Shown one piece after another: positions 2,419 through 7,714 of a DNA stretch of 13,618 nucleotides (positions within the stretch are counted from its first letter, which is position 1; each line of letters starts with the position of its first letter). A program made the position numbers and the translations under genes. Origin of the DNA: a virus; UHGV virus genome UHGV-1847238; one strand, written 5' to 3'. The notes below the pieces were generated by a model. It saw only the letters and a program-made list of their open reading frames with translations. It ran no database searches and was not told the origin of the DNA.

Positions 2419-2945
2419 TTGCGTAACTCCGATAACTCGTTAAAGCGTTCCATAAACATCCCGTAGGCATGGCCCGGTGCCAGTGGAATCACGTTGAACA
2501 TCTCTGTTGCCGGGATACCTTCCAGTACAGGCCAGAAAGAGCCATCATCAAGCCCGAGATCGCGGCGTTCGGTTGCCAGCATGATGAGATCGGCATATTT
2601 CACGGGCGTACTCATAACTGGGGGTAACCCGTATTTCTCACGGATTACGGCGTCTATTTTTTCTTCCATTTGTTTATAGTCAGGAAGAAGGCGTTTCAGT
2701 GGTGCGGGAATGTCCTGGCAATACGCTTCTGTTGCATCATGCATTAACGCTTCAAAAGCAAATTCCTGCGGCACCAGCTGGCTGCAAAGAACCGCATGTT
2801 GGGCGACGCTGTAGAAGTGCGAAAGATGACCGGCAAAGCGACAGATATTTGAAAGGGAAACCGCGATATCGTTAATATCGATGTCGTCTTTATTTATCCT
2901 GTCATAATAAAAATGCTTCCCGGAAAAAGTTTTAATAAATGACAT
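2409..2945 (-). CDS. yfdR: HD-domain metal-dependent phosphohydrolase (5'-deoxynucleotidase-like), 178 aa
   Basis: HD-superfamily His...His-Asp motif (RFAGH ... LMHDATEAY). Start taken at the second Met (ATG 2945) because GGAG lies 7 nt upstream; the ORF track's 187-aa version starts at 2972. Confidence 0.75.
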   Translation of the reverse strand: MSFIKTFSGKHFYYDRINKDDIDINDIAVSLSNICRFAGHLSHFYSVAQHAVLCSQLVPQEFAFEALMHDATEAYCQDIPAPLKRLLPDYKQMEEKIDAVIREKYGLPPVMSTPVKYADLIMLATERRDLGLDDGSFWPVLEGIPATEMFNVIPLAPGHAYGMFMERFNELSELRKCA

Positions 2946-3072
2946 TTTGTTCTCCACGTATATGCGCTGCACCGCGCTGAATTCTGGTAAAAAAAATCCC
3001 TCACCATCCGGCGATTATTGAGTAAATTACGTTTCCATAAATGCCCCCGCAGGGGCATTTGCAGTAATGAAA

Positions 3073-3897
3073 TCAGGCGATGAAAGTACCAATAAAGGTT
3101 TCTACTTTGCTGTCCTTGAATTTCTCAACAAGCAGATCACGAAATTCGTTAGCCATTTCTTCCTGCACCGCCTCCAGCTGAATAATGCGCAGAACCAGTA
3201 CAGGACGATCGCCAGTGATAATACTGAGGCGTAATTTAAACGGACGTTCTTTCAGACCTTCAAACGGAACGCATTTAAATTCAAATGCCACTGGCATAAT
3301 GTCTTTGGTCTTCGCTTCGACAGACTCCATCAGGGAGCGTTTGCCGCTGAAGTCATTATCTTCAAAATCAGCGGTCTGGTTTGCTTCAATCGTGATTTTA
3401 CGGACAGCCGCAGCCGCTTTTGTTGCCTGAATAGCGTCACCATTAGCATCAAAGCCCACAAGATAGTCGGCCCAGTCTTCAATCCATTCTGCTAGTGACT
3501 TCTGGGAGTTACGCTCGCCGTTAACAGACAACAGAGCAGAGAACGGTGCTGTCTTTTTCAGTTTGAGTGTGGCGGTGTTATCTGCGTGACCTGGTTCATC
3601 AATAGTACCCAGGTTAAGCACACTGACGGCACGCATATTATCAGCATCGATAAAGCAGCGGGTGCCTTCATCTGCAAGATCTTTAGAATAACGGGTAAAG
3701 TCATCGATGCTGGCAGTGGAAAGCGCACCACGGAAACGGAAGCGATTTAAATTAAATTTTTCCAGATCATGAATGCGGAAATTCTCAGGCAATGCCACAG
3801 CATCGGCACCAATCTTACTGATAATTTCATTAACACCCTGAGCAGAAATAAGGGCATGGATTTGATTAATTGCGGTTGCGTCTAAGTTCTGAGACAT
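3073..3897 (-). CDS. yfdQ: Phage protein of unknown function, 274 aa (YfdQ-like)
   Basis: 274-aa ORF with SD GAGGA 6-7 nt upstream of ATG 3897. No catalytic motif recognised. Symbol from recalled size and position in CPS-53. Confidence 0.7.
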
Positions 3898-3962: not shown

Positions 3963-4325
3963 TTAATGACCTGCTGCGCGAAGTTTTCCGTCAGGTTCAC
4001 CGGCAAGAGTCAGTAATTGTCCCTGGTCTTCCTGCAGAATAGTCAGGCGACCACCGCGATTGACATACATCGGTGTTTCGGTGGTGTCTTCTTCAGAAAT
4101 TTTCCCGCGGTTAGTCGGGCGAACATATGAGAGTTTGTGTTTGATTTTCACACGGTTCTCATCAAACGGTTCGATTTCCAGGTTGAGCGAGACCTTACCT
4201 TTGGTTTTCGTGTTCATCACACCGGAAGCGACTTCACTGAGAACAGCGCCGATTTTGGTTTCAAATACGCCGCCGTCCAGCTCCCCGATAAATGCCTGCA
4301 CATCAGTACTGCGTTCGCTAGCCAT
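3963..4325 (-). CDS. yfdP: Phage protein of unknown function, 120 aa (YfdP-like); first gene of the leftward early operon
   Basis: Start chosen at ATG 4325 (MASERSTDV...) because AGGAG lies 8 nt upstream. The ORF track's 197-aa version starts upstream inside the leader and has no SD. Confidence 0.6.
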   Translation of the reverse strand: MASERSTDVQAFIGELDGGVFETKIGAVLSEVASGVMNTKTKGKVSLNLEIEPFDENRVKIKHKLSYVRPTNRGKISEEDTTETPMYVNRGGRLTILQEDQGQLLTLAGEPDGKLRAAGH

Positions 4326-4461
4326 TTTGCTGCTCCTCATCATATCGACCCTGCAAGGTCGGTTGGTTTCTCCACAAAACAGAGAAGAACACCTGCGGTG
4401 ACTGCCGCCCGGATGGATTGGGTTATGAGCCCGTCGTCCGGTGATGCTCTTCTCTGTTTTG

Positions 4462-4508
4462 TAAAAAGAGCGGTACCAGCCGGAAGCAAGGGTACAAACT
4501 GGTACCGC
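4462..4508 (-). terminator. Intrinsic terminator (tL-like) in the PL leader, just upstream of the early-left genes
   Basis: Perfect 10-bp GC-rich inverted repeat GCGGTACCAG (4470-4479) / CTGGTACCGC (4499-4508) with a 19-nt loop; on the minus strand it is followed by TCTTTTTAC. Confidence 0.5.
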
Positions 4509-4920
4509 CAAAGCAGTGGCTGTTGTGGTGGGGTTGTCACTCAGGCGTATGGTCAACCTGACAATCCGGTGTCCTCAACGGGGAAAGAGTAACCCCGCCA
4601 TACTTACCGCCGCGCCATTTCGCGGATTACCACAACGCTGAGAGCACTTAGCCAGTTACGGCACCACACTTTGTCGCGGCTCCATAAATGCCCTCATCGT
4701 TGCACCCTGGTCTCTTCCCAGGCGTCAAACCGAATCGCCACGCTGGTTAGGCGTCTTATCAGCATCATCATTGACTTGCACATTCCGGCTACCTGGTTTG
4801 TTTGCTCGAGCAAGGAGTGGATTGTCCCCTTTAACGTCACCAGACCGCTAACGACGCATGTGCCATACGCCGTGTTACAACCAAATTTTGTTTTAATCTT
4901 GCCTGTGTTATGTTTCTTTT

Positions 4921-4954
4921 AGATACATTATGTATCTCATGGGTACATTGTCAA
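4921..4954 (-). promoter_or_regulatory. PL-like leftward early promoter with overlapping operator (OL)
   Basis: Minus strand: -35 TTGACA (4949-4954), 16-bp spacer, -10 CATAAT (4927-4932). Imperfect palindrome ATGTATC-N5-GGTACAT (4929-4947) fills the spacer, and a 17-bp palindrome AGATACATTATGTATCT (4921-4937) overlaps the -10. Confidence 0.5.
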
Positions 4955-4957
4955 GTA

Positions 4958-4980
4958 TAAAAAAACCTGCCGAAGCAGGT
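4958..4980 (-). terminator. Intrinsic terminator downstream of the repressor gene
   Basis: Hairpin ACCTGC-CGAA-GCAGGT (4965-4980) followed on the minus strand by a run of 7 T (plus-strand A7 at 4958-4964), 14 bp after the repressor stop. Confidence 0.65.
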
Positions 4981-4993
4981 TCATAAACATTGA

Positions 4994-5668
4994 TTAGGCT
5001 TTGATTTTGTATCTTCTTGGTTTTCCTGAGAAAATCACTGTACCAATTATAGAGCAATTACCGTTGATCTTAATGTAAGGCTCAGGCCAGTTTGGGTTTA
5101 ACGCTTTGAGATAACGCTGTGTCCCATCTTCTATCAACCTTTTGAAGGTGGTTTCACCTGTATCGTGCATCAATGCAATAACGTCGTCACCGTGGCAGGC
5201 AGGTACTTCAGGATCGACAAAAATCATGTCTCCCGGGCGGTACTCATCAATCATTGAATCACCTATCACCCGCAAGATATAAGTCATTTCCCCACAGGGT
5301 ACAGGGCAGGGATACGTTTCTGCTGTGCTCAAATCAACCTCAGAATATCCAACTTCTTTCCATGCTCCGGCCTGTACCCATGATATGACAGGGACTAATG
5401 TGATTTGTTTATTAGTGATTGAAACATCAGGTTTTTTTGTGATGTTCGTTGTCTGGTGTTCTTGATCGAGCCATCCGACAGGCAGGTCGAAACATTTTTC
5501 GATGTGTCGTGCCATGCTGTCACCGATATTTTTAGTAGCACCATCTCCCATAAACCTGCTGGTCTGGGTTGGCTCGCGATCAATCATAGTGGCAAAGGAA
5601 GAATTCCCGCCAACACCATCTCTCAGTTTTCTGGCGTTAGACCGCCGGATGTCATGGATTGTTTTCAT
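4994..5668 (-). CDS. cI: CI-type prophage repressor with C-terminal S24 (LexA-like) self-cleaving peptidase domain, 224 aa
   Basis: C-terminal VIGDSM (Ser nucleophile) and TFKRL (Lys general base) match the LexA/lambda CI S24 dyad. VQAG in the linker resembles the Ala-Gly cleavage site. N-terminal region resembles an XRE-type HTH. Transcribed divergently from cro. Confidence 0.88.
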   Translation of the reverse strand: MKTIHDIRRSNARKLRDGVGGNSSFATMIDREPTQTSRFMGDGATKNIGDSMARHIEKCFDLPVGWLDQEHQTTNITKKPDVSITNKQITLVPVISWVQAGAWKEVGYSEVDLSTAETYPCPVPCGEMTYILRVIGDSMIDEYRPGDMIFVDPEVPACHGDDVIALMHDTGETTFKRLIEDGTQRYLKALNPNWPEPYIKINGNCSIIGTVIFSGKPRRYKIKA

Positions 5669-5990: not shown

Positions 5991-6554
5991 ATGAGGCTAA
6001 CCGTGGGTAAGTATCACTGGAAAGTAGAAAAACAGCCTGAGTGGTACGTGAAAGCTGTCAGAAAAACTATCGCAGCGTTGCCGGGTGGTTACGCTGAAGC
6101 AGCTGACTGGCTGGATGTAACAGAGAACGCATTATTTAACCGCCTTCGTGCCGATGGCGATCAGATTTTCCCGCTGGGATGGGCAATGGTTTTACAGCGC
6201 GCGGCTGGCACTCACTACATTGCGGATGCTGTCGCACAGTCTGCTGGTGGGGTGTTCGTATCGCTTCCTGAAATTGAGGAAGTAGAGAACGCCGATATAA
6301 ACCAGCGCCTGCTGGAAGTCATCGAACAGATCGGGAATTACTCAAAGCAGATTCGTTCGGCAATCGAAGATGGGGTCGTGGAGCCACACGAGCAGACAGC
6401 AATTAATGATGAGTTGTATCTGTCAATTTCGAAGCTCCAAGAGCATGCAGCACTGGTCTACAAAATCTTTTGCGCTCCAGAAAAGAGTGACGCCCGCGAG
6501 TGTGCAGCTCCGGGCGTCGTGGCGTTTTGTGTCTGTGGAGAAACTAACGCATGA
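5991..6554 (+). CDS. CII-like regulatory protein (phage 186 CII/CP76- or YdaT-like family), 187 aa
   Basis: Sits immediately downstream of cro, as cII does in lambdoid phages. Family assignment is a low-resolution pattern match. Stop overlaps the next start (ATGA). An alternative GTG start at 6003 has a better SD (GAGG). Confidence 0.5.
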   Translation: MRLTVGKYHWKVEKQPEWYVKAVRKTIAALPGGYAEAADWLDVTENALFNRLRADGDQIFPLGWAMVLQRAAGTHYIADAVAQSAGGVFVSLPEIEEVENADINQRLLEVIEQIGNYSKQIRSAIEDGVVEPHEQTAINDELYLSISKLQEHAALVYKIFCAPEKSDARECAAPGVVAFCVCGETNA

Positions 6555-7714
6555 ACAGTTTAACGGCAAATAACCGTTTGTCGCAACAGCTGGTGGTCAG
6601 TGTCGCTGAACACCTGTTGTTACGGCATGAATGCAGATTACCAAATCACCTGGCTGTAAGTAACCACAGAGAACTTTACCTGACTGTGGGGGGCGAGTTG
6701 TGCAGGAACTTAACCGCTGGTTTCGTGACGGAAGAGGGCTTTATGTCCATGTTATTCGTTGGGAGCCAGAAACACAGCGCGTTATCTATCTTCGCAAAGA
6801 CTACCCGCATGAGTGCTTTAGTCCTTTGTGGAAATTCAGGCGTGATTTTGTTGAGTGTGAAGGACCACCAGCACATTGATTCTGCCATTCCGGGACGTTA
6901 CACTGTTCAGGCACCTTATAAAGCGGGTGCCGGGATTGGCGTCCTGAAATTGATTACTGAGCATAACCGCGCTCATGCGGTTTTTTCGTGTCATGAGCAT
7001 TGCTACGCCCAAATTATGGTGGGGCGTACAGGGCCGACTTCGGTCGGGCCGGGTTCGGTAGTCTCCGGTAACGCCAACCCTGTACGTCTCACCACCTCTG
7101 TGATTGGCGTCCCATGTGGTGAGTTTTCTAAAAAACTGACTACCGGGGCTGTCACTATGACTACTCTCCCAACCCTCTCTCAACCTGAAATTGCCATCGT
7201 TGATGGTCAGGCTGTTACATCTTCTTTGGCTGTTGCTGACTTCTTCTCTAAACGTCATGACGATGTTCTGAAAAAGATTCGCATTTTGGATTGTTCTCCA
7301 GAGTTTTGTGCCCGCAATTTTGCGGAGACATCAATTTTGGTACGCCAGCCCAACGGCGGTACTCGCAAACTACCTTGCTATCAAATAACCCGCGATGGCT
7401 TTGCGTTTCTTGCTATGGGTTTCACGGGTAAACGTGCTGCCCAGTTCAAAGAGGCATACATCAATGCCTTTAACCAGATGGAGAAACAGCTTTCAAAGCC
7501 CGCTGTACCGAGCGACGTTGCACATAACGCCAGTGTTCTCTATTCCTACATTTCATCAATTCATCAGGTCTGGTTGCAGCAGCTTTATCCCATGCTGGAA
7601 AAAGCTGAATCACCTCTGGCTGTAAGTCTGTATGACCGAATTAACGATGCGGCATTTCTTGCCCGTCTTATTCATTCGTCGCTGAACTCTTCAGAGGTAA
7701 GGGGGCGCAAATGA
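6551..7714 (+). CDS. Rha-family phage regulatory protein ORF, 387 aa; the Rha-like domain begins at internal Met 7157 and the N-terminal ~200 aa are unassigned
   Basis: Residues from MTTLPTLSQPEIAIVDGQAVTSSLAVADFFSKRHDDVLKKIRIL onward resemble the Phage_pRha domain. The frame is open from 6551 and that ATG overlaps the upstream stop (ATGA), but the N-terminal half has atypical composition; see findings. Confidence 0.6.
   Translation: MNSLTANNRLSQQLVVSVAEHLLLRHECRLPNHLAVSNHRELYLTVGGELCRNLTAGFVTEEGFMSMLFVGSQKHSALSIFAKTTRMSALVLCGNSGVILLSVKDHQHIDSAIPGRYTVQAPYKAGAGIGVLKLITEHNRAHAVFSCHEHCYAQIMVGRTGPTSVGPGSVVSGNANPVRLTTSVIGVPCGEFSKKLTTGAVTMTTLPTLSQPEIAIVDGQAVTSSLAVADFFSKRHDDVLKKIRILDCSPEFCARNFAETSILVRQPNGGTRKLPCYQITRDGFAFLAMGFTGKRAAQFKEAYINAFNQMEKQLSKPAVPSDVAHNASVLYSYISSIHQVWLQQLYPMLEKAESPLAVSLYDRINDAAFLARLIHSSLNSSEVRGRK

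Follow-up and report, generated by a model that had tools for sequence, protein, structure and literature searches.

In phage lambda, the map position directly downstream from the promoter PL holds nutL and the N gene. What occupies this position in a lambdoid phage that seems to have neither? The question is raised by UHGV virus genome UHGV-1847238, of which a stretch of 13,618 nucleotides (nt), hereafter called the window, was analyzed. About 595 nt of it separate a PL-type promoter from the ATG (4325) of yfdP, the first early-left gene. A preliminary description of this DNA, right about what lambda holds at this map position, offered three options for the leader at 4920-4326: RNA-based antitermination of the put type known from phage HK022, a nut site served by a factor encoded elsewhere, or a regulatory small RNA. 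The third came closest. The leader is a chain of conserved RNA structures related to the dicF locus of the Escherichia coli K-12 prophage Qin, and we consider it probable that it acts through partial termination and processing by ribonuclease (RNase) III. The segment from 4636 to the U-run of its terminator is the homolog of the region that yields the long form of the DicF RNA, although the DicF seed itself is absent. In transcript order, the leader comprises the following features.

4701-4873, minus strand: Element A, a pseudoknotted RNA of about 170 nt (alignment A3)
4632-4703, minus strand: stem C, a long imperfect stem, CAACGAUGAGGGCAUUUA/UAAGUGCUCUCAGCGUUG, with an apical hairpin (minimum-free-energy fold and alignment with Qin)
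4522-4636, minus strand: Element B, with the closing stem GUUGUGGU (4636-4629) / ACCACAAC (4529-4522) (fold and identity with Qin)
4510-4521, minus strand: a 12-nt linker, AGCCACUGCUUU (alignment A2)
4509-4463, minus strand: predicted DicF-type intrinsic terminator, with a stem of 11-13 base pairs (bp), a pyrimidine-rich loop of 15-19 nt containing CCCUU, and then U5 (fold and covariation)
4369-4467, minus strand: a long hairpin whose 25-bp stem pairs 4467-4443 with 4393-4369 (fold, -50.2 kcal/mol)
4326-4375, minus strand: the yfdP 5' untranslated region, with GUGGAGAAACCAAC at 4375-4362, the hairpin CGACCU-UGCA-GGGUCG at 4361-4346, and the Shine-Dalgarno sequence GAGGAG (alignment of homologs)

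The relationship to dicF is most direct in the middle of the leader. Window positions 4636-4514 are 89% identical to the 123 nt located directly 5' of dicF in K-12 Qin (L157 2252-2374). The hairpin and U-run that follow sit at the position of DicF in Qin, and the hairpin base UUUGGCGGUA(C/U)CAGUUU is common to both. As in the DicF locus, hairpin and U-run stand in a PL-type operon between homologous flanks. The Qin promoter dicBp has been described as PL-like (Ragunathan et al. 2023, PMC10448788), and two DicF species are made from its transcript: one of 53 nt with a 5' end formed by RNase E and one of 190 nt with a 5' end formed by RNase III, both ending at the terminator (PMC10448788). A terminated transcript of 1146 nt and a read-through transcript of 1608 nt were both seen (PMC10448788). 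In addition, an earlier finding, cited by Balasubramanian et al. (2016, PMC5069750), is that RNase III cuts the full-length mRNA just past the terminator to give a 72-nt form of DicF.

Several of these landmarks have counterparts in the window. In Qin, the 190-nt DicF begins only a few bases 5' of GUUGUGG, on the 3' side of a long stem. Stem C of the window (4703-4632) is the counterpart of this stem, and the equivalent point, where RNase III is predicted to cut, would be about 4643/4642. Directly after dicF, Qin carries a long inverted repeat, whose equivalent in position is the 25-bp stem at 4467-4369. A yfdP locus of Buttiauxella has the Qin type of this stem, which shows the stems to be interchangeable. 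This stem exceeds the roughly 20 bp of double-stranded RNA, at least, that is expected of an RNase III substrate, and the stem of about 18 bp at 4703-4632 comes in addition to it. The long hairpin is a probable RNase III site in read-through transcripts, by analogy with Qin.

The part that window and Qin do not share is precisely defined. In Qin the linker before the terminator hairpin is 31 nt long and includes the DicF seed UUUCUGGUGACG and an RNase E site; the window is 19 nt shorter exactly there (A2). The Rfam DicF model (RF00039) gave no match within 4200-5100, either at E up to 10 or at its gathering score, while Qin as a positive control scored 76.7 bits; nor did it match in phages Ayreon, SfV and mEp460. 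The broader Rfam search proposed in the preliminary description likewise found nothing in the leader at gathering score or at E up to 10, and its only matches in the window were isrK and C4, both in the PR operon. Many relatives, among them the loci L040, L042, L069, L112 and L004/SfV, conserve a different sequence, GCUGUGUGUAGUCUUGGCGG, directly ahead of the DicF-type hairpin, where Qin has the seed, and other relatives carry further variants at this place. It seems that a DicF-type terminator can be preceded by any of several 5' segments.

Comparison across genera supports the structures themselves. Loci with yfdP were fetched by way of the YfdP protein, with one genome per species, and the stretch upstream of the gene proved to be conserved in Mangrovibacter, Enterobacter, Atlantibacter, Leclercia, Superficieibacter, Phytobacter, Kosakonia, Scandinavium and Pseudocitrobacter, and in outline in Providencia. 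Alignment A1, with 19 sequences from about 12 genera, supports three helices: that of the terminator, one of 22-25 bp beginning in the U-run, and a variable inner hairpin. Over terminator and long hairpin together, 97.4% of cells are paired and 19 of 37 pairs show compensatory changes; none of 500 shuffles reached these values, and slid controls were 40-54% paired. Because several positions read U-G in nearly all A1 sequences, the conserved structure is the RNA of the minus strand, and the other strand is ruled out. Folding energies agree in part, with z = -4.55 for the whole leader (4920-4326) and z = -6.47 for 4515-4326. The folding and covariance analysis recommended at the outset did reveal conserved structures.

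The strong terminator originally placed at 4462-4508 was confirmed as a stem, GGCGGUACCAG/CUGGUACCGCU, spanning 4509-4469 (-20.7 kcal/mol) and followed by U5 at 4467-4463. Five of its nine pairs carry compensatory changes in A1, and the T-run after it is invariant in all 19 sequences. It is a G+C-rich stem directly before a U-run, kept in relatives, for which termination is predicted. A terminator scanner missed the hairpin because its loop is longer than 8 nt. The 25-bp stem of the long hairpin begins inside the U-run and encloses a branched arm with the tip ACGGGCUCAUAACCCAA (4434-4418) as well as the variable hairpin (4408-4395); 98.6% of its cells are paired, and 10 of 22 pairs have undergone compensatory change. 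In two E. coli yfdP loci of the CPS-53 type (L005 and L013, positions 2800-3000), iteron-like repeats, GATTTTGACGGGTCAGATTTTGATGCGTCAGATTTTGACGGGTCAGAG, replace the terminator and long-hairpin module, and similarity to the window begins only 20 nt before the ATG.

Could the leader instead encode a protein? On the transcribed strand, a GTG-initiated frame of 66 amino acids (aa) runs from 4540 to 4340 through the terminator hairpin, as the preliminary description had reported. Its statement that this is the only open reading frame (ORF) of 60 aa or more overlooked that yfdP itself can be extended in frame to a TTG at 4556, which would make it 197 aa long. On the opposite strand, three frames (83, 41 and 151 aa) are open. 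A small-protein reading would draw on the 48-aa and 66-aa frames of the transcribed strand or on the opposite-strand frames annotated in cdtI, mEp460, Ayreon and 2H10. In its favor are open frames of 41-83 aa and the coding sequences (CDSs) in these deposited genomes. However, none of these frames is conserved: the longest ORF switches strand and frame among 33 homologs of 4873-4701 and among 19 homologs of 4520-4323. Insertions and deletions in the leader alignments are not multiples of three, substitutions in stems are compensatory, and RefSeq annotates nothing across the leader in identical E. coli DNA. A role for the interval as a small-protein gene is therefore exceedingly improbable, and the earlier view that it holds no convincing coding frame on the transcribed strand was upheld by the survey of homologs. 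A mini-ORF through GUGGAGAAAC was also considered and rejected, because the other genera preserve neither its frames nor its stops.

The hypothetical-protein CDSs that span the leader are found in NC_009514 (cdtI), JQ182728 (mEp460), MF807953 (Ayreon) and LR595862 (2H10), several of them on the strand that is not transcribed. Since the RNA covaries and no frame is conserved, they are probably false calls. In the terminator and yfdP upstream module, DNA is 75-89% identical where the YfdP protein is only 57-76% identical. By this comparison, the module is under selection as nucleic acid.

Between stem C and the terminator, the leader holds an element shaped like a transfer RNA (tRNA). Element B has three arms in a cloverleaf-like outline, and one of these is the GC-rich hairpin CCGCG-N6-CGCGG (about 4606-4621) that had been pointed out beforehand; this hairpin is real and is conserved in Qin and in phage P1. 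The Qin counterpart of the closing stem is GUUGUGGC/GCUGCAAC, and compensatory changes are visible in the few variants at hand. Phages of the Uetakevirus type carry an actual tRNA-Arg in the Element B slot, between the long stem and the DicF-type terminator. Other phages, mEp460 among them, have a different interior; the closing stem is the same and is often followed by N-CCA. For the window itself, ARAGORN reported no tRNA genes and Rfam no tRNA match.

Taken together, these features suggest how the locus may work. The interval is the untranslated, highly structured 5' part of the PL transcript in a prophage of the SfV/mEp460/cdtI type, built like the Qin dicBF operon, with Element A, the long stem, the tRNA-shaped Element B, the DicF-type terminator, the 25-bp hairpin and the yfdP ribosome-binding site following one another 5' to 3' on the minus strand. 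Upon loss of repressor, RNA polymerase would make an RNA of about 460 nt. Some transcripts would stop at the U-run (4467-4463), and the remainder would read through without a dedicated antiterminator, as in Qin. RNase III would then cleave near 4643, in the long stem, and also in the 25-bp hairpin wherever transcripts have read through. Three products are predicted from these cuts: an RNA of about 180 nt that contains Element B and the terminator hairpin and corresponds to the 190-nt DicF, an upstream RNA with Element A, and a separate yfdP mRNA. The leader would in this way both produce stable noncoding RNA and set the level of early-left expression. For lack of the DicF seed, the product of about 180 nt is not expected to act on ftsZ in the manner of DicF.

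Several observations weigh against this model. Termination efficiency and RNase III sites are wholly transferred from Qin and are to that extent presumptive, as are the stability of the products and any target. The long hairpin of Qin is analogous to that of the window by position and is not similar in sequence. Segment 4705-4510 folds with a z-score of only -0.86 and is not thermodynamically unusual. The same GUUG (4636-4633) is claimed both by stem C and by the stem that closes Element B, and the Element B fold rests on few compensatory changes because sequence diversity is limited. The missing seed, and a 12-nt linker that varies among relatives, leave a trans-acting role for the 180-nt RNA unproven. 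Finally, the model assigns no function to the most conserved parts of the leader, namely a 19-nt core within Element A and the loop ACGGGCUCAUAACCCAA.

The antitermination options must be weighed against the same structures. A lambda-type nut site would have the boxA-like CGCUCUUUUUAC recruit Nus factors together with an N-like protein encoded elsewhere. Its position is that of nutL, and the string shares CGCUCUU with lambda boxA. However, the boxA-like sequence noted after the terminator in the preliminary description, CGCTCTTTTTAC, occurs once in the window against 2.25 matches expected by chance, and homologs read CGCCCTTTTT, CGCAATTTTTT or CGCATTTTTT at its position. What resembles boxA is made up of the U-run and the lowest part of the terminator stem; it supplies the 5' arm of the long hairpin and lies downstream of the very terminator hairpin that would have to be overridden. 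No boxB-type hairpin follows it, the 25-bp stem being there instead, and no second copy of the leader that could serve as a nutR-like or putR-like partner is present in the PR operon within the window, which covers only part of the phage. A Pfam scan of ten ORFs revealed no N-like protein. This explanation is largely refuted and we find it hardly credible. The product of SfV orf33, which replaces 4896-4511 in that phage, was considered as an N-like protein and rejected for want of an arginine-rich motif.

The put-type option bears on Element A, the domain made first from the promoter. Its parts, all on the minus strand and all from alignment A3, are as follows.

4872-4852, minus strand: H1
4848-4841 with 4795-4788, minus strand: H2
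4793-4775, minus strand: the invariant 19-nt core, GGUAGCCGGAAUGUGCAAG
4754-4751 with 4743-4740, minus strand: H4
4748-4745 (the H4 loop) with 4731-4728, minus strand: the pseudoknot
4722-4706, minus strand: H5

Alignment A3 consists of 33 Element A sequences with less than 95% identity, and it supports the four helices and the pseudoknot, in which a hairpin loop CACC pairs with a downstream GGUG (AACC and GGUU in the window). In total, 96.5% of cells are paired and 12 of 28 pairs show compensatory change; once more, none of 500 shuffles did as well, and slid controls gave 27-51%. RNAalifold proposed a further pairing of GCACAU with AUGUGC, both invariant, which was left out of the model because neither side varies and because it competes with the covarying H1.

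In the window, the covariance model R1 finds a single copy of Element A (137.7 bits). Phytobacter and Kosakonia carry independent copies ahead of yfdP, and the model has no match in SfV, Qin, HK022 or most of the yfdP loci examined. Of 5426 complete E. coli genomes, 1834 contain Element A; 554 of its places are on plasmids, and all E. coli matches listed are unannotated. It also matches unannotated DNA of P1, P7 and their relatives, directly 3' of trnI and 5' of ban, and of Uetakevirus phages, directly 5' of tRNA-Arg. An exact scan of IMG/VR for 16 nt of the core returned at least 120 stretches. Among the matches listed, 42 of 122 viral loci have a tRNA on the same strand adjoining Element A. 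Within 200 nt upstream, 17 of 94 contexts contain a sigma-70 match of at least 10 of 12 positions, compared with 2 of 94 for a control region, and a DicF-type hairpin with T-run follows 246-918 nt after Element A in 64 of 99 loci. Rfam 15 gave no match for Element A in the window at E up to 10 and none at gathering score in 12 diverse carrier loci. The literature, including surveys of prophage small RNAs (AgvB, the Pas RNAs) and a full-text search for the core, yielded no description of the element, which older dicF or P1 papers may nevertheless mention.

Three side observations concern Element A directly. A 32-nt spacer in an array of clustered regularly interspaced short palindromic repeats (CRISPR) of E. 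coli strain 2012C-4502 (L160 401-432) is 100% identical to the part at 4857-4826 on the minus strand. Within Element A and partly in H2, UCUGGUGACGUU (4844-4833, minus strand) equals 12 nt of the DicF seed that is missing beside the terminator; it is found in the P1 and lambdoid subfamily only and may reflect chance or be a trace of DicF origin. In the viral contigs L116 (about 3345-3375) and L059, Element A is followed by a small hairpin and then by an rrn-type boxA, GCTCTTTAACAA in the former and GCTCTTTAATAA in the latter, which suggests Nus-factor antitermination on some noncoding leaders.

Might Element A be a cis-acting antiterminator that, like put, binds RNA polymerase and carries it past the DicF-type and later terminators in a phage without N? 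Its promoter-proximal place, the DicF-type terminator downstream in those 64 of 99 loci, the lack of an N-like protein among the Pfam-scanned ORFs, and a complex conserved fold with invariant unpaired bases would all fit. The rrn-type boxA right after Element A in L116 and L059 also suggests a pressure to resist termination. Against this, a blastn comparison with the HK022 immunity region revealed no similarity to putL or putR, and the window contains Element A only once, the PR operon having no copy. The same module of terminator, long hairpin and yfdP occurs without Element A in SfV and most genera examined, and the Qin terminator is read through without it. The P1 copy lies in the middle of an operon, between trnI and ban, and the tRNA and long-stem flanks look like those of an RNA that is released rather than tethered. 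Put-like antitermination in this leader, as offered in the preliminary description, therefore does not find support, and we judge it unlikely.

We favor instead the view that Element A is a released, stable RNA, because the terminator and yfdP module and Qin do without it, because the P1 copy is located mid-operon, and because tRNAs and the long stem bracket it. A broader proposal, which we put forward only tentatively, is that Element A represents a previously undescribed class of structured phage RNA, about 150-175 nt long and pseudoknotted with the invariant core GGUAGCCGGAAUGUGCAAG, that would be made early from repressor-controlled promoters and cut out alongside tRNAs. By sequence matches, its carriers include a third of complete E. 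coli genomes, P1-like plasmid prophages and several unrelated groups of temperate phages. Its modeled fold, with unpaired bases that do not vary, suggests a defined biochemical task rather than simple base-pairing; catalysis would be one example, and binding of RNA polymerase or of a host factor another.

The other highly conserved part of the leader is the tip of the long hairpin. There, GGCUCAU is the module's best conserved stretch in Enterobacteriaceae, with variation in some genera; it is intact in 16 of 19 sequences and is flanked by stems that covary. The tip sequence ACGGGCUCAUAACCCAA matches CGGGCUCAUAACCCGA, which we take to be the anticodon arm of E. coli tRNA-fMet. This resemblance raises the idea that the tip mimics the initiator tRNA and serves as an operator or decoy for the P site of the 30S subunit with IF3, for MetRS, or for a toxin like VapC, so that the loop would control translation of yfdP or protect the host tRNA-fMet. 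However, in three genera CUCAUUC stands in place of CUCAUAA, so that the purine at position 37 is lost; no more than two G-C pairs are present in four sequences, and the Providencia homologs have an unrelated interior. ARAGORN detects no tRNA here, and the likeness was spotted after the fact. We therefore regard mimicry as quite improbable. Pairing of the CUCAUAA loop with the yfdP start region was rejected as well, since it amounts to only 5 bp in the window and is absent in homologs. If Element A did prove to be a new RNA class, the initiator-tRNA-like loop would be a second functional mimic.

The window as a whole belongs, by sequence comparison, to a lambdoid prophage of E. coli of the SfV/mEp460/cdtI/Ayreon type. 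Its leader shares 98-99% identity with those of Stx2c-converting phages, cdtI and Ayreon, and several E. coli chromosomes match it at 100%. Around the leader lie these features.

5668-4994, minus strand: S24-type repressor gene (Pfam and annotation)
4982-4963, minus strand: repressor-gene terminator, directly ahead of the promoter
4954-4927, minus strand: PL-type sigma-70 promoter TTGACA-16-CATAAT, with 11 of 12 consensus positions
4936-4922, minus strand: operator-like 15-bp palindrome GATACATAATGTATC, which overlaps the -10 element
4892-4897, minus strand: mosaic junction between the immunity module and the leader modules (edges of similarity in SfV and mEp460)
3963-4325, minus strand: yfdP, 120 aa, the first early-left gene, with its ATG at 4325 (RefSeq annotation of identical DNA)
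Downstream of yfdP, minus strand: yfdQ (DUF2303) and further small genes (annotation and Pfam)
1524-361, minus strand: integrase, at the end of the early-left gene order
Opposite strand: the PR operon with cro, a CII-like gene, an Ash/Rha ORF and replication genes (Pfam)

The PL-like promoter first proposed at about 4927-4954 was thus borne out, and the homologous position is annotated as a promoter in Ayreon. YfdP has homologs in 31 loci and matched no Pfam family. The junction was located with two phages. SfV shares the immunity region, and its similarity extends to 4897 and resumes at 4510; about 790 unrelated bases, with orf33, lie in between. In mEp460, which has a different repressor, similarity begins at 4892 and continues through the rest of the leader. 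From these edges, 4892-4326 consists of modules that move independently of the immunity region, and comparison of the sequences makes the leader a mosaic of modules common to Qin, P1 and Uetakevirus phages.

In the PR operon, Rfam places isrK (59.3 bits; 6911-6987, plus strand) and the C4 antisense RNA (82.3 bits; 7012-7099, plus strand) back to back inside a 387-aa ORF (6551-7714), an arrangement that resembles immI of P1 and P7 and is also present in Ayreon, SfV and mEp460. The Pfam match Phage_ASH (aa 117-212, about nt 6899-7186) overlays the DNA of both RNAs and is followed by the Rha domain. Either the 5' part of this ORF is untranslated or the Ash family partly models RNA genes. Farther along, three to four copies of CATCGGGTCAAA(A/G)TG at 8276-8391 (plus strand) within the ORF 7932-8924 look like origin iterons in a replication initiator gene.

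The leader offers an explanation for how the early-left operon can begin in a lambdoid phage without N: with a DicF-type RNA locus and not with nut or put. By analogy with Qin, a leaky terminator together with RNase III processing would replace dedicated antitermination. Because DicF-type hairpins carry varied 5' segments or none, annotation of a locus as "dicF-like" does not by itself predict control of ftsZ. The parts that deserve experiments are Element A and the conserved long hairpin with its initiator-tRNA-like tip; the former, an RNA domain with good support from covariation, lacks annotation and occurs commonly in E. coli, P1 and other phages.

Among known systems, lambda nutL with N and HK022 putL resemble the leader in being the first RNA made from PL, ahead of terminators. 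It differs from them in that it has no boxB, no conservation of its boxA-like string, no partner site in the PR operon, no N-like protein among the ten Pfam-scanned ORFs and no similarity to put. Another comparison is with tRNA-like, processed phage RNAs, the CI RNA of P4 and the C4 RNA of P1 and P7. Like these, Element B and its variants have an acceptor-like closing stem, followed in several relatives by N-CCA, and they replace a tRNA in its slot; unlike these, Element B has neither a sequence relationship to them nor an Rfam match. Processing is a further point of difference, since in Qin the 5' end depends on RNase III and not on RNase P (PMC10448788).

P1 itself carries relatives of both elements. 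Over window positions 4625-4530, Element B is 75% identical to the annotated "dicF-like region" after the P1 ban promoter, and Element A is 79% identical to an unannotated 185 nt between trnI and ban, with differences that are compensatory hairpin by hairpin. Unlike in the window, the P1 elements are about 2.3 kb apart and in reverse order, and Element A follows a tRNA, stands directly before ban and has no DicF-type terminator after it. The Uetakevirus type, represented by E. coli O157 typing phage 9 and TL-2011b, preserves the window's order of promoter, Element A, long stem, slot and DicF-type terminator, with 83% identity over Element A and the long stem; its slot holds the tRNA-Arg in place of Element B, and its downstream gene is different.

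The closest likeness is to Qin. Both loci lie 3' of a repressor gene, on a PL-type transcript and ahead of the first small early-left protein gene, and in both a long stem precedes, and a long inverted repeat follows, the hairpin with its U-run. Unlike Qin, the window lacks the 19 nt that hold the DicF seed and the RNase E site, has a different hairpin loop, and continues with yfdP instead of dicB; the locus is preceded by Element A in the window and by ydfABC in Qin. On this comparison, the leader groups with Qin dicF and the P1 dicF-like stretches as a variant, and mostly a known kind of locus, that does without the DicF seed, stands ahead of yfdP and has an extra RNA domain.

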